Shown piece by piece: positions 6,109-50,747 of a stretch of DNA of 64,000 nt. The translations under genes and the position numbers were made by a program. A model generated the notes under the pieces. The model saw only the letters and a program-made list of their open reading frames with translations. It was not told where the DNA came from and did not search any database. The stretch is from Escherichia phage FEC14, in sequence record MG383452, one strand, 5' to 3'. Numbering within the stretch: the first letter of the stretch is position 1; each line of letters begins with the position of its first letter.

Positions 6109-6195
6109 GACTGATACTCCTGTTGTAAGAAAGTTATATCGTACAACAGGAATTGTTATTGAACTATTCGCGTATTAAATCGTTACGATAAACAA

Positions 6196-6432
6196 TCACG
6201 TATTTTGAGAAACATATTTCAGATATGCGTATTTGTAACCTTCCTCGGTGAGTACACACAGATGTGTATCTCGACCTTTTGGTACGTTTTTAACATCAAC
6301 TCGTTTACAAAACCCCAGGGAGGCCAATTCGGCTTCTCCAGATTTAGCAGGTATTTCCCCAGCTTCACGAGGTCCAAACCAGAAAAGAACGAATAGAGTA
6401 TCGACTGCACCGCCAGATAATTGATGAGACAT
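6196..6432 (-). CDS. hypothetical protein
   Basis: Track ORF 6196..6516 trimmed to the internal ATG preceded by AAGGAGGT; the longer version would run through the terminator hairpin. Confidence 0.45.
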   Translation of the reverse strand: MSHQLSGGAVDTLFVLFWFGPREAGEIPAKSGEAELASLGFCKRVDVKNVPKGRDTHLCVLTEEGYKYAYLKYVSQNT

Positions 6433-6480
6433 TTTAACCTCCTTTGATAAATGAGGCTTTATTATCTTACATATCCCTAT

Positions 6481-6508
6481 AAAGAAAAACCCCGCCGAAG
6501 CGGGGTTT
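6481..6508 (-). terminator. rho-independent terminator downstream of the capsid gene
   Basis: GC hairpin accccgc-cgaa-gcggggt followed by a T-tract on the minus strand. The same hairpin sequence recurs near 12845 and 33080. Confidence 0.6.
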
Positions 6509-6526
6509 GTTATCAAAACCTGTCGC

Positions 6527-7849
6527 TTAGAACAGAGATTTGATCAGACCTTTGCGGAAATACGGGTTGCTGTCTTGAGCAATACCGTCAGCAGTCACGT
6601 AAACCTGCGGGTCTTGGTTAGCCGGAATCTGTACGAACGGGTTAGCACAGATGCCGTAACGGGTTTTGAACGCCATACGCGGAGCGAAGGTGGTTTCACC
6701 CTGGGTGCGGTACATTTCCAGCGGCACATACGGTGCGAAGAAGATACCGGCATCCAGCGCAGTTGCGCCTTTGTATGCCAGGGTGATATATTCTGCTACA
6801 GCATACGGGTCAACATAGACGCGCATGCCGTTGGACAGAACACCAGCGAAGGTCTGGCCAGTCGGGTCAACAGCCAGTTTAGTGTTTTCCTGCAGAACCG
6901 GAGCATAGTCCAGCATGCCAGACATCGCCAGAGCGGATGCCACGTTCGGAGAACACAGAACACGGTTGCCTTTACCACGACGGGTGTCAACACCGATACC
7001 GTTCGCTTCAACTTCCAGCATGAAAGTCAGGAACTTCCATTTTTCCAGCGCCCAACGACCGGAGATGTCCTGCGCGATATCAACAACACCGTTGGTGCCG
7101 AATTTTTTGAAGCGAACAGCACTGAAGTTCATGGTACGGATGAATTCACGGTTCATTTCCGCCTGAATTTCAGTTACCATCACGTCAGACAGGATATTAT
7201 CCACGTCTTCGCCGTGAATTGCCATCATGTCCTGACGCAGTTCATGGCTGTAATCAGCGTACAGGCCGCGAGACTTGGCAGTAACAGTCGCTTTCTGAAC
7301 AGTGATACCAACACGCGCCCAAGGGTTGGTGGTAGTACCCAGCAGTTCAGCATCACTTGACGGCATACCTTTACCGATAGTGGTCACGCCAGAGCCGGAA
7401 CCTTCGATCTCAGCCTGACTAAAGCCAGACGGGTCGCCAGCCTGTACAGTACCATCACCGGAATAGCCGGAATCGGCTTCCTGCATGAACAGTTCTTTAC
7501 GAGACTGTGCGGTGTTGGAACTGTCACCAACGCCCTGGCGAGCGCGCAGTGCAAAGATCTGACCGTCAGGACCAGACAGCGGCTGAACACCGAAGAAGTC
7601 CATCGCGATGTTGATCGGCGCCAGACGTTTTGCCATGTCGATCAGAACTGGCTGCCATTTACCGACAGTGCTGTTCACAGAACCAGGTGCGTCAGATTCG
7701 CCCAGGTTTTTTGCGTTCCATTCAGCCTGGTTCTGCATCAGACGGATGGTTACGTTTTCGGCAGACAGAGGTTGAATAGCTTCAGATTCTTTTTGGAGAA
7801 CTGGCAGCCACTGTTTGCGCATTTCTTCGGTTACAAGTTTCTTAGTCAT
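6527..7849 (-). CDS. major capsid protein (T4 gp23-like)
   Basis: 440-aa ORF immediately downstream of the scaffold/protease/portal block, in T4 gene order; GGAACGAG RBS; followed by a strong terminator. Confidence 0.7.
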   Translation of the reverse strand: MTKKLVTEEMRKQWLPVLQKESEAIQPLSAENVTIRLMQNQAEWNAKNLGESDAPGSVNSTVGKWQPVLIDMAKRLAPINIAMDFFGVQPLSGPDGQIFALRARQGVGDSSNTAQSRKELFMQEADSGYSGDGTVQAGDPSGFSQAEIEGSGSGVTTIGKGMPSSDAELLGTTTNPWARVGITVQKATVTAKSRGLYADYSHELRQDMMAIHGEDVDNILSDVMVTEIQAEMNREFIRTMNFSAVRFKKFGTNGVVDIAQDISGRWALEKWKFLTFMLEVEANGIGVDTRRGKGNRVLCSPNVASALAMSGMLDYAPVLQENTKLAVDPTGQTFAGVLSNGMRVYVDPYAVAEYITLAYKGATALDAGIFFAPYVPLEMYRTQGETTFAPRMAFKTRYGICANPFVQIPANQDPQVYVTADGIAQDSNPYFRKGLIKSLF

Positions 7850-7940
7850 GATGCTCGTTCCTTACATTGATATTCAGTTAAGTTGAAATTACTTAGTAGT
7901 TCAAAATCAAGCCCCCTTTCGAGGGCTGTGGCTGCTAAAA

Positions 7941-8780
7941 TTAGCCGTTCAGCAAAGCACTGATCTGGCGACGGACGGCTTCGTTGACTTCTTTGCCAAC
8001 TTCGTCTTTGTCGTCATCGTCATCGTCATCATCGTCGGCTTCACCTTCTTTCTTCGGTTTTTTACCTTCTTTGATGTCTTTTTCAGACTTGTCGCCATCC
8101 GGCTTGCCTTTTTCATTGTCTTTGCCGACTTTATCAGAGAAGTCATCTTTGCCTTCTACCAGGTTACGGAAGGTGCGCACACGGGATTCAAATTCAGACT
8201 CGGTCTGGAATTCAATACCTTCCAGCAGGTTGACAACAGTGTCTTTCTTGGTGTCAACCATGCCTTCACAAATGCGATCAATTACGTCGGTGCGCTGGCG
8301 TTTAGTCTCGCTTTCTTTGAGCTGAGCCAACTCTGTATTAGCCATATTGGCGCGTTGTTCTGCTTCAGCAAGGCGACTGGTGAGGGCGGCAATCTGACCG
8401 TCTGGGTCAGTAGCGAAACTCACACCTGCTTCTTTCAGCACGTTGGAGAAACCAGTGAGGAAGCGTTCAGCAGCTTCAGTTTTGATCTGAGCGTCAATAG
8501 CTGGGGCATTTTTGTTAGCCCATTCTTCAACCACCGCGTTGAGGAATGAGTCAACTTTCCCAGCCAATTGCAGAATGAAATTTTCTTTCAGGTCGGCGAT
8601 TTCTTTCTGGTGAGATTCTACCAAATTCAGGCGCTCGACGTTGCCAGCTGCTTCGGTTTCTTGGATAGCTTTCAGACGAGCCGCTTCAACTTTCGATTCC
8701 AGCAAATTGGATACTTTATCCAGGAAATCTGGGCTGATGCCGTTAACGCCTTCAAACAGATTTTGCAATTCAGGTTTCAT
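7941..8780 (-). CDS. prohead scaffold/core protein (T4 gp22-like)
   Basis: 279 aa, highly charged, with a poly-Asp tract (ADDDDDDDDKDE), located between protease and capsid genes. Confidence 0.6.
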   Translation of the reverse strand: MKPELQNLFEGVNGISPDFLDKVSNLLESKVEAARLKAIQETEAAGNVERLNLVESHQKEIADLKENFILQLAGKVDSFLNAVVEEWANKNAPAIDAQIKTEAAERFLTGFSNVLKEAGVSFATDPDGQIAALTSRLAEAEQRANMANTELAQLKESETKRQRTDVIDRICEGMVDTKKDTVVNLLEGIEFQTESEFESRVRTFRNLVEGKDDFSDKVGKDNEKGKPDGDKSEKDIKEGKKPKKEGEADDDDDDDDDKDEVGKEVNEAVRRQISALLNG

Positions 8781-8826: not shown

Positions 8827-9495
8827 TCAGCCCAGATGATTCAATGCTGCATCAAGGCGGCGCAGGAAATCGTCTTCAACCTGGATATTGGTTTTCACCA
8901 ACTGGTCTACAACTTTCCCTTTAACATCACGAGGCATCCAAATACCCGAAGCCTCATCAAGCTGCCATTCAACAGATTCACTCACAGCCTTAACATAACA
9001 AACTTGTCCAGAAGGACGGTCGACTGCATCAACAGCGGTGAGCATAAAGCCAGGCTGAACGTCATCATAACCGTTTACTGACTTGGTCTCACCCAGGCCA
9101 CGTGTAGACACGGCCAGATTGAAGTCTGCTTCGGCCAATGCACGTATGATTTGGCCTTTTGGTGTATTTAAAATTCGCGCCCGACCGATGGCATTAGTGC
9201 CTTCCCAGCGAAGGGATTCGGTTTTGAGCGCTGCTTCCACCAGATTAGGGAAAGGATAGTCAGGATGTGTGACTTCACCGATTGCGCGACGATCTTGGAT
9301 ATACTCTTTGTCGTATGCTTCGACAGCAGGAATACCCACTTTCTGCAGATCATAGTTACGCCCGTTACGGTTGACTTGGTTACACATCACAAACGGACCT
9401 TCGATGAACATGGCCTTCCCACCAGTTGAGGTTGTGGCCTCACCGATTTGAAGATCCTTCCCTATCGCTGTGATCTCACGCAACAGTTTCATCAT
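8827..9495 (-). CDS. prohead protease (T4 gp21-like)
   Basis: 222 aa, position between portal/core and scaffold genes as in T4; AAGGAG RBS. Confidence 0.6.
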   Translation of the reverse strand: MMKLLREITAIGKDLQIGEATTSTGGKAMFIEGPFVMCNQVNRNGRNYDLQKVGIPAVEAYDKEYIQDRRAIGEVTHPDYPFPNLVEAALKTESLRWEGTNAIGRARILNTPKGQIIRALAEADFNLAVSTRGLGETKSVNGYDDVQPGFMLTAVDAVDRPSGQVCYVKAVSESVEWQLDEASGIWMPRDVKGKVVDQLVKTNIQVEDDFLRRLDAALNHLG

Positions 9496-9502
9496 AAACT
9501 CC

Positions 9503-9820
9503 TTACTTGTTCTTACTCAGTCCCATCATTTTGCGGAACTTCATAGCCTTTTTCTTGCGGCGCTCGATTTTACGTTGATAGCCCATTCCCATACGCTTTT
9601 TAGAGCGGAGAGCTTTGCGGTTGCCGATCTTGCGAACACGACGTTCGCTGGCGTCCATAACTTCACAACGTGAACCATCAGCCGACAATTTGAACCCAGG
9701 GGCACATTTCAAGCGGCGGCGGCGTTTACCACGAGCGTTCACTTTATCGATGACTCGCTGCTCGTCCATACGAGAGGCCAGGAAATCAGCGAACGTGGCG
9801 ATCTCTGTGATTTCCATCAT
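9503..9820 (-). CDS. small basic prohead core/internal protein (gp67/68-like position)
   Basis: 105 aa, Lys/Arg-rich, between portal and protease; AAGGAGA RBS. Confidence 0.4.
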   Translation of the reverse strand: MMEITEIATFADFLASRMDEQRVIDKVNARGKRRRRLKCAPGFKLSADGSRCEVMDASERRVRKIGNRKALRSKKRMGMGYQRKIERRKKKAMKFRKMMGLSKNK

Positions 9821-43851: not shown

Positions 43852-43858
43852 CTAAATA
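43852..43858 (+). promoter_or_regulatory. CTAAATA late-promoter-like box on the plus strand
   Basis: ctaaataaacc immediately 3' of the tRNA-Met CCA end, about 35 nt upstream of the small ORF ATG at 43889. Confidence 0.35.
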
Positions 43859-43888: not shown

Positions 43889-44089
43889 ATGATGAAAACG
43901 TTCGGTGATTTTCTTACTGAGTGGGATGGTCTCGCTACCGACAACAAAGAGATTGTTGAGTTTGTTGAAAAGCGAGGCGATAAGTGGGTTGTCCTTGACC
44001 ACACCAAGACTAAAGTTCTTGGGACACATGACACCAAAGCTGACGCGGACGCCCAATTAAGGGCGATCGAAGCGAATAAACATAGTTGA
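43889..44089 (+). CDS. small hypothetical protein
   Basis: ATGATG start with GGTGAG upstream; lies between two tRNA genes. Confidence 0.4.
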   Translation: MMKTFGDFLTEWDGLATDNKEIVEFVEKRGDKWVVLDHTKTKVLGTHDTKADADAQLRAIEANKHS

Positions 44090-47083: not shown

Positions 47084-48277
47084 ATGAACAAAACCATCTT
47101 CGATACCCTTTCCCTCGACCGTAATCTGGTTCACTGGGAAGATTATCTCTACAAACACACCCCTTGCGAACTCATTGCCAATCCAGAAACCAATCAGCAG
47201 GTTTGGTTCAAACGTGAAGATTACTTCGCGCCTTTGTCATGCTATATGAATGGCAAGCAGGGGATCAATGGCAGCAAACTCCGTCAGGCCATCTGGCTCA
47301 TGATGGAGCATCTGAAAGCGGGAGGATCCCCAGATCTTATCCATGGTACTGTCGTTGGTAGTCCGCAGTCCCCTATGGCGACGGCAGTCTCACGGCATTT
47401 CGGCGGCAAGACAACCACTGTGCTGGGTGCCACTAAACCAACCACATGCATGAATCATGATATGGTTTCAATGTCAGCATGGTTTGGTAGTGAGTTCAAC
47501 TTTGTTGGATCTGGTTACAATAGCACCATTCAGCCGCGCTGTAAGAAACTCATTGAACAATTAAATCCAAAGGCGTATTATCTGGAATATGGCATTACAT
47601 TGGATCATACCGTTCATTCACCAGAACGCATTGCTGGATTCCATATGCTGGGCGGGGAGCAGGTTGCCAACATCCCTGACCATATTACCGATCTAATTAT
47701 CCCTGCTGGTTCTTGTAACTCATGTACAAGCATCCTGACCGGACTGGCAATGCATCCGAAACCAAATCTGAAGAATGTCTATCTGATCGGGATTGGACCA
47801 AACCGATTAGATTTCATTGAAAGTCGTTTGCGCATTATCGGTAAGCAAGCAAACCTCCCTCACATAACTGATTTCACTCGTCGCTATCACGACAACCCAG
47901 ACTATGTGTATGGTAAGAAGGATCTCCAGCATGCCTCTAAGAGCGTTTCGCTGGCTGGCCTCCTAAGTGGTATCAGGCCAAAGAACGAGCCGGATATCGT
48001 GCTTCCTCGTTTTGAGGTACACCATTGGGATCTTCATACCACTAATTGGGTTCGTTACAACGACCTCATGGATTACCAGTGGGGAGATATTGAGTTGCAT
48101 CCTCGTTATGAAGGGAAGGTGATGACATGGATACAGGAACACAAACCAGAATTGCTTAATGAGAACTCATTGTTTTGGATCGTGGGTAGCAAGCCATATC
48201 TGGAAGCGATGAAAGCTGCTTGTCCTGAATTATCAATACCTGAACATGTCCCTGTGAATGAGTTTGTCCCCAGCTAA
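47084..48277 (+). CDS. putative PLP-dependent enzyme (ACC-deaminase / D-cysteine-desulfhydrase-like fold)
   Basis: N-terminal WFKREDYFAPLSCYMNGKQGINGSKLRQ resembles, from memory, the conserved region of that family that carries the PLP-binding Lys. AGGAGA RBS. Confidence 0.45.
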   Translation: MNKTIFDTLSLDRNLVHWEDYLYKHTPCELIANPETNQQVWFKREDYFAPLSCYMNGKQGINGSKLRQAIWLMMEHLKAGGSPDLIHGTVVGSPQSPMATAVSRHFGGKTTTVLGATKPTTCMNHDMVSMSAWFGSEFNFVGSGYNSTIQPRCKKLIEQLNPKAYYLEYGITLDHTVHSPERIAGFHMLGGEQVANIPDHITDLIIPAGSCNSCTSILTGLAMHPKPNLKNVYLIGIGPNRLDFIESRLRIIGKQANLPHITDFTRRYHDNPDYVYGKKDLQHASKSVSLAGLLSGIRPKNEPDIVLPRFEVHHWDLHTTNWVRYNDLMDYQWGDIELHPRYEGKVMTWIQEHKPELLNENSLFWIVGSKPYLEAMKAACPELSIPEHVPVNEFVPS

Positions 48278-48283
48278 TCCATC

Positions 48284-48316
48284 CTAAATACCCCATACGA
48301 CCAGTGTGGGGTATCT
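48284..48316 (+). promoter_or_regulatory. late promoter CTAAATAcccc plus hairpin plus GGGGTATCT-ATG (plus-strand copy of the tailspike element)
   Basis: atcCTAAATAccccatacgaccagtgtggggtatctATG. Confidence 0.45.
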
Positions 48317-48766
48317 ATGAAAACCTTTCTAGAATTTTATCGCGAATCAACGTTACCTGATTTTACGAATATCGTTTTGTATCATGGGTCTAATGTTGAA
48401 TTCGATATCTTTGATTTTGAAAAATTTGGCCAGACTGACTCTGGTACGATGGGTGCTGGGTTTTACCTGACGGGGGATCCAGAAAAGGCACAGATCTACG
48501 CAGAAAATGCCGTGCGCTATCGTCAATCTGGTGAACCTATTGTCATGGCATTTCGTGTCAAGGCCAAGAAGACTCTTGTAATAGATTCCAACAATGTTTC
48601 GGTGTGGGAAAATAAAATGCGTGAGTTGGGGATAAAGCCTGGTAAGATACATGATAATGTGAAAGAACTTATCAACAAAGGGTTCGATTCCATAGCCTCT
48701 ATGAGTGCCAATAACGTTGAGGAAATGGTGGTGTTTAAGCCAGGGCTGGCGACCAGAGAAGCCTAA
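48317..48766 (+). CDS. hypothetical protein
   Basis: 149-aa ORF directly after the promoter-hairpin element. Confidence 0.5.
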   Translation: MKTFLEFYRESTLPDFTNIVLYHGSNVEFDIFDFEKFGQTDSGTMGAGFYLTGDPEKAQIYAENAVRYRQSGEPIVMAFRVKAKKTLVIDSNNVSVWENKMRELGIKPGKIHDNVKELINKGFDSIASMSANNVEEMVVFKPGLATREA

Positions 48767-48801
48767 ATAGTCCAAAGCAGTTTATTCAAGAGGACATTAC
48801 C

Positions 48802-49260
48802 ATGCCAATTTCGAAATTATTTGAAGCGGATTCCCCAGCAGACATGCCTATTTGGACTGGTGTTCAAGACGGGACTACGATTGAATTCTTTGAGCGCGGG
48901 GAAACAGGTGCTGAAGAGATTTATGCTTCCGTGCAAGGGACAGACGTCGTCCGCGCCGCCGTAGCTCTTGCTACATTTTTAGAGGACGCCCCGATTGACG
49001 GTATCCCGTTTGAAGCCCATGTGGACCCAGAAGACCCGACGTCTATCATCATTACAGTCCAGGGTGCTGAATATACATCTTACAGTATTGAGCACGATGA
49101 AGAAACAGGAGCGCTGTTTATAGCCACGGATCTTCAATTGGAAGATGACGAAATTGAATATCTGAAACAGAATGGTCGTCTCCCTGAATATTCTGATGAA
49201 GAATTGGATTCAGCGTTTGACAACGTAGACGATGATGACGATTTCTGGGACGGGAAATAA
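48802..49260 (+). CDS. highly acidic hypothetical protein
   Basis: 152 aa, very rich in Asp/Glu with a C-terminal DNVDDDDDFWDGK; AAGAGGA RBS. Confidence 0.5.
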   Translation: MPISKLFEADSPADMPIWTGVQDGTTIEFFERGETGAEEIYASVQGTDVVRAAVALATFLEDAPIDGIPFEAHVDPEDPTSIIITVQGAEYTSYSIEHDEETGALFIATDLQLEDDEIEYLKQNGRLPEYSDEELDSAFDNVDDDDDFWDGK

Positions 49261-49287
49261 ACAAGGGGGGCTATTGCCCCCTTGTTT
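49261..49287. terminator. bidirectional terminator (perfect palindromic hairpin)
   Basis: caagggggg-ctatt-gcccccttg between convergent genes. Confidence 0.6.
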
Positions 49288-49831
49288 ATGCTTTGACCTT
49301 TCTTGTTGGATATTGGTTAAAAATTTTGCCGAGTTTCGACACGTTGATGATCGTGTGTGTCTTCCAATATTCAATTCCCTCTGGTGTAGTCACTTCCAGA
49401 ATCGAATAATCCCAGATATGGGAACCCTTTAAGATTGCATCACTGTGCCCACCGATTTTATTTTCTAGTTTAATGATGAATGCTTCATATTGAAATGCAG
49501 CGTTACGACGAGCTTCATCAATAAATCGTTTTTGACGGTCTGGGTCGCGCTTAACAATTTCTGGTTTACCAGGCTGATATGTTGAAGAAACGAGTTGAAC
49601 CAATGAATGATACAATGTGTGTTTAGATTTCATGCTCACGTAATCTGGATGACCAAGTCTTATCCCTACGCTGGACGGCCATGGAGCACAAGCATTAATA
49701 TCCCAGCCGTGAGATTCTAAATCTTCCATGACTTTGTTAATAATATTCGTTGCCGACATGACTGCGGCGTCTTCAGCCTGGGACAACAGAGGCTCAACTG
49801 CGATACGGACAGGAGTTTTTGGCATATTCAT
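49286..49831 (-). CDS. hypothetical protein
   Basis: 181-aa ORF, ATG start. Confidence 0.5.
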   Translation of the reverse strand: MNMPKTPVRIAVEPLLSQAEDAAVMSATNIINKVMEDLESHGWDINACAPWPSSVGIRLGHPDYVSMKSKHTLYHSLVQLVSSTYQPGKPEIVKRDPDRQKRFIDEARRNAAFQYEAFIIKLENKIGGHSDAILKGSHIWDYSILEVTTPEGIEYWKTHTIINVSKLGKIFNQYPTRKVKA

Positions 49832-49881: not shown

Positions 49882-50439
49882 TTAGAGGCGGGAATCCAAC
49901 CATGCGTTCTTTTCATTCTGCCATTCCCAAGCGGCCTGACCACCTGCCATGATAACTTCCAGAGAAGGAGTATTGTCATCCTCGCCGCCGTGAAGATCTG
50001 GATCAAATCCATCATCTTCCGGATCATCTTCACATTCGTTCTGATATGCGGAATATTCAATATAATGCGCTTCGGCTTCGCAATCCATGTCTCCCAGAGC
50101 AGTCTCAAGAGTCATTTTACCTTCGGCAATCAGCTCAGCCGTTGCGTCGTCCAGACCTGCGTCTTTCGCTTCAACAAAGAGTTCATGACGTTTCTGGAAG
50201 AGAAAGAATTGCATGGCGGCAGAACGTGAATCAAAGAATTCTTGACGAGGAGCGGTGATATCACGCCCATCAATTTTACTTACCATCACGACACGAGAAC
50301 CGTACTCAACCAGGAAGCGACCGCCTTTTACGGGGTTGCTGCCGTCAACTGTGCCCAAAGTGGTGATTACACGGCCTTCTTCGGTGCCGAACAATACAGT
50401 TTTGCCGGATTTGGATTGAGCGATAATTTCGATTGCCAT
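49882..50439 (-). CDS. hypothetical protein with acidic C-terminus
   Basis: 185 aa from the internal ATG with AAGGA RBS; the track ORF extends upstream to 50619. Confidence 0.45.
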   Translation of the reverse strand: MAIEIIAQSKSGKTVLFGTEEGRVITTLGTVDGSNPVKGGRFLVEYGSRVVMVSKIDGRDITAPRQEFFDSRSAAMQFFLFQKRHELFVEAKDAGLDDATAELIAEGKMTLETALGDMDCEAEAHYIEYSAYQNECEDDPEDDGFDPDLHGGEDDNTPSLEVIMAGGQAAWEWQNEKNAWLDSRL

Positions 50440-50534
50440 GATGTATTTCCTTCTCTTCAGATTGTTGTTTGTTCGTACTACAATTAGAAGTATACGCCAG
50501 TTATTGAAGAAGTAAACTTTATTCAATAAATATT

Positions 50535-50747
50535 TTAATAAATTTTGAATTCTGCTCCTTTGTACACTGCTTTCCCTCGTTCTATGAGGCCGTCGGGGAC
50601 AACCACCTTTGTGGGCCATCCGCCGTCCGGTGCTTTGACAGTCAGGCGTGTCTTATGATCACCCAGCTGAATCTGTTCGTAAATCCTTCCTCTCACTATC
50701 GTCGCCCCGCCTTGGGTAACGAGCAATCTCTTGTTTACCACTTTCAT
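50535..50747 (-). CDS. hypothetical protein
   Basis: 70-aa ORF. Confidence 0.4.
   Translation of the reverse strand: MKVVNKRLLVTQGGATIVRGRIYEQIQLGDHKTRLTVKAPDGGWPTKVVVPDGLIERGKAVYKGAEFKIY

Follow-up and report, generated by a model that had tools for sequence, protein, structure and literature searches.

Within a 64,000-nucleotide stretch of Escherichia phage FEC14 (sequence record MG383452), whose full length we refer to as the window, positions 48802-49260 encode a 152-amino acid protein dominated by aspartate and glutamate. An earlier note on this DNA, made from the letters alone, had picked out the open reading frame (ORF) and put its product forward as a candidate DNA mimic or anti-defense factor. 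It is now established that this acidic protein is made late and is carried in the particles of essentially every enterobacterial phage of the Ackermannviridae. As to its role, we tentatively favor a polyanionic decoy that would be packaged in the head, trimmed, and delivered to the host by ejection; a role in structure or assembly alone is about equally likely, and a chaperone-like adaptor comes third.

The presence of the protein in virions is documented by published proteomics. In CsCl-purified virions of the phage Sajous1, mass spectrometry (MS) assigned 31 spectra to gp115 and 10 spectra to gp116 (PMC10892097 Table 6), which we verified to be the 152-amino acid homolog of the acidic protein and the neighboring ADP-ribosyltransferase (ART), respectively. 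For scale, the same table lists 89 spectra for the portal, 33 for a neck protein, 13 for the prohead protease, and 4 for the scaffold (PMC10892097 Table 6). As the acidic protein offers only about three MS-friendly tryptic peptides, the 31 spectra suggest an appreciable copy number. In LIMEstone1, the homolog (ORF174) and the ART (ORF173) are listed among the “confirmed structural proteins”, with one peptide each (PMC3296691 Table 2; record HE600015), and according to the authors each of the 12 unknown structural proteins has a structural counterpart in ViI (PMC3296691). The Vi01 record reserves the name “phage associated protein” for Vi01_179, Vi01_183 (the ART) and Vi01_184 (the acidic protein), while their neighbors are called “putative uncharacterised protein”; a further homolog is PhiSH19 gp148. 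The acidic protein is not included in the virion proteomes of phiD3 and AG3, both of which are too shallow, and our literature and structure searches found neither localization or ejection data nor an Ackermannviridae capsid structure, including by cryo-electron microscopy. The Vi01 homolog itself (NC_015296, 10338..10793) is garbled over residues ∼41-63 (MHRYRARMCPRCR-SPCNVLRRR) with normal sequence on either side, which looks like a compensated double frameshift or a sequencing error in the reference record.

The late timing of expression is read from the promoter, one of the following signals that flank the gene:

48802..49260, plus strand: coding sequence of the 152-amino acid acidic virion protein, with an ATG start and a TAA stop (PHROG 3852)
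48788..48794, plus strand: ribosome-binding site AAGAGGA, a Shine-Dalgarno sequence 7 nucleotides 5′ of the ATG, read directly from the sequence
48763..48769, plus strand: late-promoter core CTAAATA, 32 nucleotides 5′ of the acidic start codon, identified by motif enrichment and conservation
49257..49289, both strands: bidirectional intrinsic-terminator hairpin, common to the acidic gene and the convergent minus-strand gene at 49286..49831

The window holds 16 copies of the heptamer CTAAATA where 7.2 are expected, and none of 100 shuffles reaches 16. Scaffold, tailspike, and baseplate genes have copies 21-37 nucleotides 5′ of their start codons, and the ART and the acidic gene have theirs at 26 and 32 nucleotides, respectively. 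The T4 late-transcription proteins gp55, gp33, and gp45 are encoded by ViI-like phages, whose late promoters are TATAAATA-like (PMC3121705). The motif is kept 5′ of the homolog in LIMEstone1, where it is the late promoter annotated by the authors, in the distant phages Bue1 and Kevin, and in two divergent metagenomic contigs (L011 and L010). We saw no evidence for an early promoter of the acidic gene in the window sequence, and a literature search for Kuttervirus transcriptomics found nothing useful. The late promoter alone sets the gene apart from classical early anti-restriction genes. Sites across the window include 8809, 10027, 14810, 19060, 25576, 30798, 33033, 36430, and 40292 on the minus strand and 43852, 48284, and 48763 on the plus strand; nearly all copies lie at that 21-37 nucleotide distance from structural-gene starts, and CCCC often follows the heptamer directly.

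Gene structure, distribution, and genome context

The acidic ORF is a real gene, as its conservation across records, its pattern of substitution, and the detection of its product by MS all demonstrate. The reported coordinates and composition were reproduced exactly: the protein contains 21 Asp and 19 Glu (40 of 152 residues, 26.3%) against 3 Lys and 3 Arg, and both acidic runs singled out at the outset, EDDEIEYL and DNVDDDDDFWDGK, are located in it, at residues 114-121 and 140-152, respectively. Its net charge at pH 7 is about −34 and its isoelectric point (pI) is 3.27; the latter was recomputed, since the value of 4.05 returned by Biopython is the floor of that program’s search. Among the 54 plausible ORFs of at least 100 amino acids in the window, which average 13% D+E, it is the most acidic (z ∼4.2). 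Examination of the charge distribution, as the earlier note had advised, shows that acidity is spread over core and tail: residues 131-152 are 50% D+E with a net charge of −10, and residues 9-130 (23% D+E) alone carry a net charge of −24, so the acidity is not confined to the tail.

The terminator had been described as perfect and bidirectional. It is indeed bidirectional and strong, with folding free energies of −21.5 and −20.3 kcal/mol on the two strands (z of −4.7 and −4.5) that none of 200 shuffles matched, but it is near-perfect rather than perfect, because six G stand opposite five C and one base is left unpaired. GC hairpin equivalents follow the homolog in LIMEstone1 (an annotated terminator), Bue1, Kevin, and the L011 and L010 contigs.

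A tblastn search finds the acidic gene in 276 phage records, compared with 277 records that hold a major capsid protein at least 80% identical, and the acidic gene is therefore a core gene. Its synteny is conserved across these phages. The ratio of nonsynonymous to synonymous change (pN/pS) is 0.19 against LIMEstone1 and 0.026 against Sajous1; the gene is under strong purifying selection. Two of the records carry unexpected host names, OR844942.1 (“Enterococcus phage Efm 3-10”) and MN871475.1 (“Pseudomonas phage Pa-sanjiao”). Their copies of the acidic gene and the ART are 100% identical to those of this Salmonella Kuttervirus, and it looks as though the host labels are mistaken or the samples were contaminated.

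Beyond this group of phages the protein is an orphan. Its sole family match is PHROG 3852, of unknown function. A word-indexed search of 5.8 billion proteins returned only close Ackermannviridae relatives, and only 7 clusters came out of an exhaustive profile search against 1.84 billion representatives. There was no match in Pfam, even at E ≤ 10 with 28 members of the family scanned, nor in NCBIfam, PADLOC, or a sequence search of the Protein Data Bank (PDB), and an earlier structural-homology attempt on the protein yielded nothing significant (Harris et al.). In Vibrio relatives, whose capsid protein is 65% identical, the pyridoxal phosphate (PLP)-dependent enzyme encoded near the acidic gene is present, an acidic homolog is undetected, and the locus holds no acidic analog. 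A syntenic acidic analog in these relatives was considered and rejected, as the locus encodes a basic 600-amino acid protein instead. In Vibrio phage D509 this protein (6160..7962), annotated as an RNA polymerase sigma factor, replaces the ART and acidic pair, with the PLP enzyme on one side and the DNA polymerase region on the other.

The window is that of a Kuttervirus, a myovirus of the Vi1-like, T4-related type. Identity of the region to Salmonella phages Se-B and BSP101 is 99%, and ∼270 Ackermannviridae genomes match it. The window contains a T4-type head module, with genes for the major capsid protein, the scaffold, the gp21-type prohead protease, a basic gp68-like protein, and the portal, and further encodes tailspikes, tRNAs, and a DNA polymerase of family B. 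At the acidic locus, the gene order is a 77-amino acid protein, a “tail needle knob”-like protein, an NDUS4-like protein, the PLP-dependent enzyme, the 149-amino acid ART, the acidic gene, and the terminator. The PLP-dependent enzyme (47084..48277, plus strand) has a weak PALP match, and its relatives are annotated as threonine ammonia-lyase or PLP lyase; homologs reach Vibrio and Aeromonas relatives (342 records). The enzyme is of the class of gp226 in ViI, where five genes, gp226 among them, suffice for synthesis of the hypermodified thymidine 5-NeOmdU (PMC5889632). Beyond the terminator, a 245-amino acid ORF on the minus strand (49882..50619) also has an acidic C-terminal part (ECEDDPEDDGFDPDLHGGEDD); its true start is uncertain, since relatives differ in length (558 nucleotides in “barely”, 738 nucleotides in SeF3a).

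Predicted fold, N-terminal peptide, and the ART neighbor

Two AlphaFold2 runs with different alignments gave the same topology. Together with conservation, they divide the acidic protein into three parts:

48802..48825, plus strand: N-terminal octapeptide MPISKLFE, a candidate propeptide or targeting signal with an L-x-E site, from conservation; cleavage after E8 would be expected by analogy
48844..49176, plus strand: folded acidic core, about residues 15-125, with the order β1-β2-β3-α1-β4-β5-β6-β7-α2 (AlphaFold2, block pLDDT 72-93, pTM 0.70-0.72)
49192..49257, plus strand: disordered poly-Asp/Glu tail, residues 131-152 (pLDDT <50 in both models)

The prediction is thus not the disordered acidic tail alone that the earlier note had named as the outcome speaking against a mimic, as both models contain a confident folded acidic core. 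In an alignment of 16 members, reaching down to 33% identity, 27 positions are invariant. All members of the family are 23-28.5% D+E with 1-6 K+R, and 14 alignment columns are always D or E. The tail ends in a motif of the form (D/E)(D/E)D-[F/L]-W, in which D147 and W149 are invariant (codons 49240-49248) and which is followed by 0-8 residues. The C-terminal tail of single-stranded DNA-binding protein (SSB) is of the DDDIPF type. Mimicry of this tail was ruled out for the acidic protein, because with 0-8 residues after F-W the tryptophan is not a conserved C-terminal residue.

Foldseek found no match in the PDB at E ≤ 0.001, and a search of BFVD returned only the protein’s own family. The top matches of both models are class I chaperones of type III secretion systems (T3SS), namely ExsC (3kxy), SycE, SchA, and STM2138. 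For ExsC, E was 0.13 with one model and 0.033 with the other (probability 0.77 and 0.90). The chaperone matches score below significance, at template modeling (TM) scores of 0.30-0.40.

The most conserved segment of the protein is the octapeptide, yet it is of low pLDDT and unstructured in both models. Residues M1, S4, L6, F7, and E8 are invariant, which amounts to 5 of 8 positions compared with 22 of 144 elsewhere (16 members; Fisher p = 0.005). The invariant L6-F7-E8, retained in 16 diverse members, fits the L/I-X-E site of gp21, the T4 prohead protease that cleaves after this motif (PMC9026906). In T4, a capsid targeting sequence of about 10 residues brings the internal proteins into the prohead, after which the gp21 protease removes it; positions 4 and 7 serve targeting, and positions 8 and 10 serve processing (PMC9026906; PMC7697877). 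The N-terminus of the scaffold in the window, MKPELQNLFE/G, resembles the MPISKLFE/A of the acidic protein (the slash marks the putative cleavage point). Two other genes of the window bear on this N-terminus:

8827..9495, minus strand: gp21-type prohead maturation protease (PHROG 207, E 1.8e-69), which may act on the acidic protein
48317..48766, plus strand: ART (ART-PolyVal/DUF3990), 149 amino acids, with its own late promoter at 48284-48290 (Pfam PF18760, 41.9 bits, cutoff 31.2)

The ART conserves YHGS, GFYLT, and a C-terminal Glu. Its N-terminus, MKTFLEFYRE, is an almost canonical targeting sequence of the T4 internal proteins (Ip), and the pattern is also seen in its orthologs in LIMEstone1 (MKTFLQYLQE) and the L011 contig (MKPFAQYLKE); the sequence after E10 is STLPDFTDIVLYHGSNVEFDVFDFEK. 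Because of this targeting sequence, late expression, and MS detection in virions, the ART is probably injected, as a mini-ART that would be a functional analog of T4 Alt with an Ip-type signal. It also matches the PADLOC candidate defense models PDC-M13A/B (2.9e-09). The ART is accessory, being found in 225 records, whereas the acidic gene is in 276. The acidic gene stands without the ART in Serratia and Erwinia phages, in most of those of Shigella, and in about half of those of Klebsiella. Bue1 and Kevin have a different upstream neighbor, and the L011 contig has the ART three genes away.

Similar N-termini occur elsewhere in the window. A 66-amino acid ORF at 43889..44089 (plus strand; PHROG 3684), located between tRNA-Met and tRNA-Asn, has its own CTAAATA promoter (43852..43858) and begins MMKTFGDFLTE/W, a T4-type targeting sequence with an L-T-E site. 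From its sequence, this ORF is a candidate for a small internal (ejected) protein. The locus is variable, since Sajous1 has tRNA-Trp there instead. The gp68-like head-core protein (9503..9820, minus strand; pI 11.4, net charge +22) begins MMEITE/I, with an I-T-E protease site; that this basic protein might be an electrostatic partner of the acidic protein inside the head is an idea only.

Possible roles of the acidic protein

In the decoy reading that we favor, the N-terminal S-x-L-F-E peptide would direct the acidic protein into the prohead core, where the gp21-type prohead protease would trim it after Glu8, as with T4 Alt and the T4 internal proteins, leaving a predicted mature N-terminus of ADTPADMPIWTGVQDGTTIEFFER. 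Head packaging and this trimming are proposed on the basis of the invariant L-F-E, the likeness to Alt and to the scaffold, and the targeting sequence of the neighboring gene. In T4, an aspartate in place of the cleaved residue prevents processing and leaves targeting intact. The mature protein would stay in the filled head and exit with the DNA, together with the ART where present. In the cell, before phage gene expression, its polyanionic surface and tail would serve as a nucleic-acid decoy for a conserved host DNA-binding protein, which could be a nuclease, a restriction enzyme for modified DNA, or a nucleoid protein, and the aromatic D-F-W tip might anchor to that host partner. This account is supported by the precedent of T4 Ip1-3, which are injected and inhibit restriction enzymes directed at modified DNA (PMC12373910), and by the hypermodified DNA of ViI-like phages, where ∼40% of thymidines carry a primary amine (PMC5889632). 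T4 gp67, which is 44% D+E, shows that a T4-type head can house a very acidic protein. Should the protein be injected with the DNA, an anti-defense or decoy role like that of T4 Ip1-3 is possible by analogy. Taken as a whole, the chain from packaging to decoy is a reading that we hold with reserve, as one that may well fail at some step.

Several points weigh against it. The N-terminus MPISKLFEAD departs from the canonical targeting sequence MKT(Y/F)xEFxxE, whose positions 4 and 7 are aromatic; in the T4 record, IPII and IPIII begin MKTYQEFIAE and IPI begins MKTFKEFTST. Cleavage at E8, the location inside the head, and ejection are steps that we infer from sequence. A protein of net charge −34 is electrostatically unfavorable within a DNA-filled head, and the core status and slow evolution of the gene suit a structural or assembly role better, because the T4 internal proteins are variable accessory genes. 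Pfam, PDB sequence, and Foldseek searches likewise revealed no similarity to any known DNA mimic. On these data we cannot tell whether the original DNA-mimic or anti-defense interpretation is correct. The most far-reaching version, in which a family-wide, virion-delivered decoy with a secretion-chaperone-like fold and a non-canonical signal is co-fired with the mini-ART and neutralizes a conserved host DNA-binding factor by means of its acidic surface and D-F-W tail, is rather unlikely; if true, it would represent an injected host-takeover or anti-defense protein of a new class, encoded by a core gene instead of an accessory one and acidic instead of basic.

The strongest competitor is that the protein is structural only, either an additional acidic part of the prohead core, as T4 gp67 is, or an accessory or decoration protein of the capsid, neck, or tail; it would be required for the particle to assemble or remain stable and would have no role after injection. 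We regard this as possible, with the same reserve. It accords with a core gene of conserved synteny (276 versus 277 records) under strong purifying selection, expressed late alongside structural genes, with a spectral count comparable to those of structural proteins, and with the “structural protein” label that databases and three groups have already given it; T4 gp67 provides the precedent for an acidic head-core protein. The location of the gene is less easily explained, as it lies outside the head and tail modules and adjoins an enzyme of the injected type, and the position of gp67, from the portal to the gp68-like gene, is already filled by another ORF. Scaffold-type proteins are largely expelled (4 spectra), whereas the acidic protein persists (31). 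The Vibrio relatives, with capsid proteins 65% identical, have no detectable homolog, and the protein is therefore not required for that capsid architecture as such. A T3SS chaperone-like adaptor, which would bind the N-terminal regions of packaged or ejected proteins and either load the prohead or keep its clients competent for ejection, would draw on other evidence: class I T3SS chaperones head the Foldseek results of the two AlphaFold models, the size of ∼150 amino acids, the acidity, and the β-β-β-α-β-β-(β-β)-α order resemble that fold, and in most genomes the gene lies directly 3′ of the effector-like ART. However, the adjacency to an effector that is a feature of T3SS chaperones breaks down in many genomes with the acidic gene, where the ART is absent or displaced. 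We consider the adaptor unlikely.

Other roles fare worse. It could be that the protein partners the 5-NeOmdU DNA inside the head, balancing charge or organizing the genome, given that the thymidines of ViI-like phages bear amines (PMC5889632) and that the gene shares a block with the PLP enzyme of the pathway. This is quite improbable, as the Vibrio relatives keep the PLP enzyme with neither a homolog nor an acidic analog at the locus, and the acidic gene is transcribed as a unit of its own. An inhibitor or immunity partner dedicated to silencing the ART in the producing cell or the capsid would account for genes that are neighbors in the same orientation in Kuttervirus, Limestonevirus, and others, and for two products that are both late and both in virions. 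Each gene has its own promoter, though, and the acidic gene often occurs without the ART (276 versus 225 records); this distribution weakens any idea of an ART inhibitor or chaperone, and we rate the inhibitor as very unlikely. The remaining rival is a classical early DNA mimic of the Ocr/ArdA type, expressed from the entering genome to inhibit type I restriction-modification. Ocr and ArdA span a compositional range that covers the small size, the pI of ∼3.3, and the 26% D+E of the acidic protein. Against this, the promoter is late, the product is packaged in virions, the gene is core and slowly evolving, and neither a Pfam match, including Ocr/ArdA, nor a fold match was found. We rate this reading too as very unlikely.

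Some of this is already known: databases list the protein as hypothetical or “structural”, and its detection in virions has been published. New relative to the literature searched are the late-promoter assignment, the core-gene status, and the conserved terminal motifs that fit T4 prohead-protease and Alt-type signals. The contrast between a core acidic gene and an accessory ART that bears a T4 Ip-type targeting sequence is also new. If head-packaged and ejected, the protein would be unusual for its kind in being acidic, core, of non-canonical signal, and of orphan fold. Ackermannviridae are widely used or proposed as biocontrol and therapeutic agents against Salmonella, E. coli O157, Klebsiella, Shigella, and Dickeya, and about half of their genes are without known function. 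Few “dark” proteins are, like the acidic protein, both universal in the group and present in the particle in appreciable amount. If it and the ART are ejected with the DNA, they would constitute an unstudied “pre-early” host-takeover kit, with targeting peptides usable for cargo loading. If it is structural instead, it would be an unusual, extremely charged component of the particle.

Comparison with known systems

The acidic protein shares with T7 Ocr, ArdA, and T4 Arn a small size, extreme negative charge, and phage origin. Unlike these proteins, it is encoded by a late, core gene, is packaged in the virion, and matches none of them in family or fold. In mimics of this kind, carboxylates on the surface imitate the phosphate backbone of B-DNA, usually in a dimer. 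Being pre-made in the virion, it would act in time, before restriction, only if ejected.

The likeness to class I T3SS chaperones lies in a length of ∼130-150 amino acids, acidity, a mixed α/β composition, and a similar order of strands and helices. The first helix of these chaperones, whose fold runs α-β-β-β-α-β-β-α, is missing in the predicted acidic protein. T3SS chaperones are often encoded beside the effector that is delivered, while the ART neighbor of the acidic gene is dispensable, and the acidic protein is itself inside the delivered particle.

From T4, gp67 is an internal head protein, a prohead-core protein from which acidic internal peptides derive (PMC7697877). Like the acidic protein, it is small and very acidic (44% D+E) with L/I-x-E sites and, as proposed for the acidic protein, head-associated. 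The gp67 gene lies between the portal and gp68 genes, whereas the acidic gene is ∼39 kilobases from the head module and a separate 56-amino acid ORF occupies the gp67 position in the window. The architecture differs as well: judged from its sequence, gp67 looks like a short region and then a long acidic run, while the acidic protein has a predicted globular domain of 110 residues. Homology to gp67 is undetectable, since the acidic protein is an orphan family.

T4 Ip1, Ip2, and Ip3, which inhibit GmrSD-type restriction enzymes, offer a parallel to the proposed ejection, as small, late virion proteins with an N-terminal L/I-x-E site in a T4-related myovirus with modified DNA. The differences are marked. 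The T4 internal proteins, as read from their sequences, are rich in Lys and Arg, as opposed to the net −34 of the acidic protein, and they are variable accessory genes, in contrast to a core gene with a pN/pS of 0.03-0.19. The acidic protein begins MPISKLFE rather than MKT(Y/F)xEFxxE and has no sequence or fold similarity to them, and its ejection is putative.

T4 Alt is a 682-amino acid enzyme, while the acidic protein has no enzymatic motif, and the likeness between the two is limited to about 8 residues. Those residues lie at the N-terminus, where the MELITELFDE of Alt aligns with the MPISKLFEAD of the acidic protein (I-[TS]-x-L-F-[DE]). Both occur in virions, and gp21 is the protease that cleaves Alt (PMC9026906).

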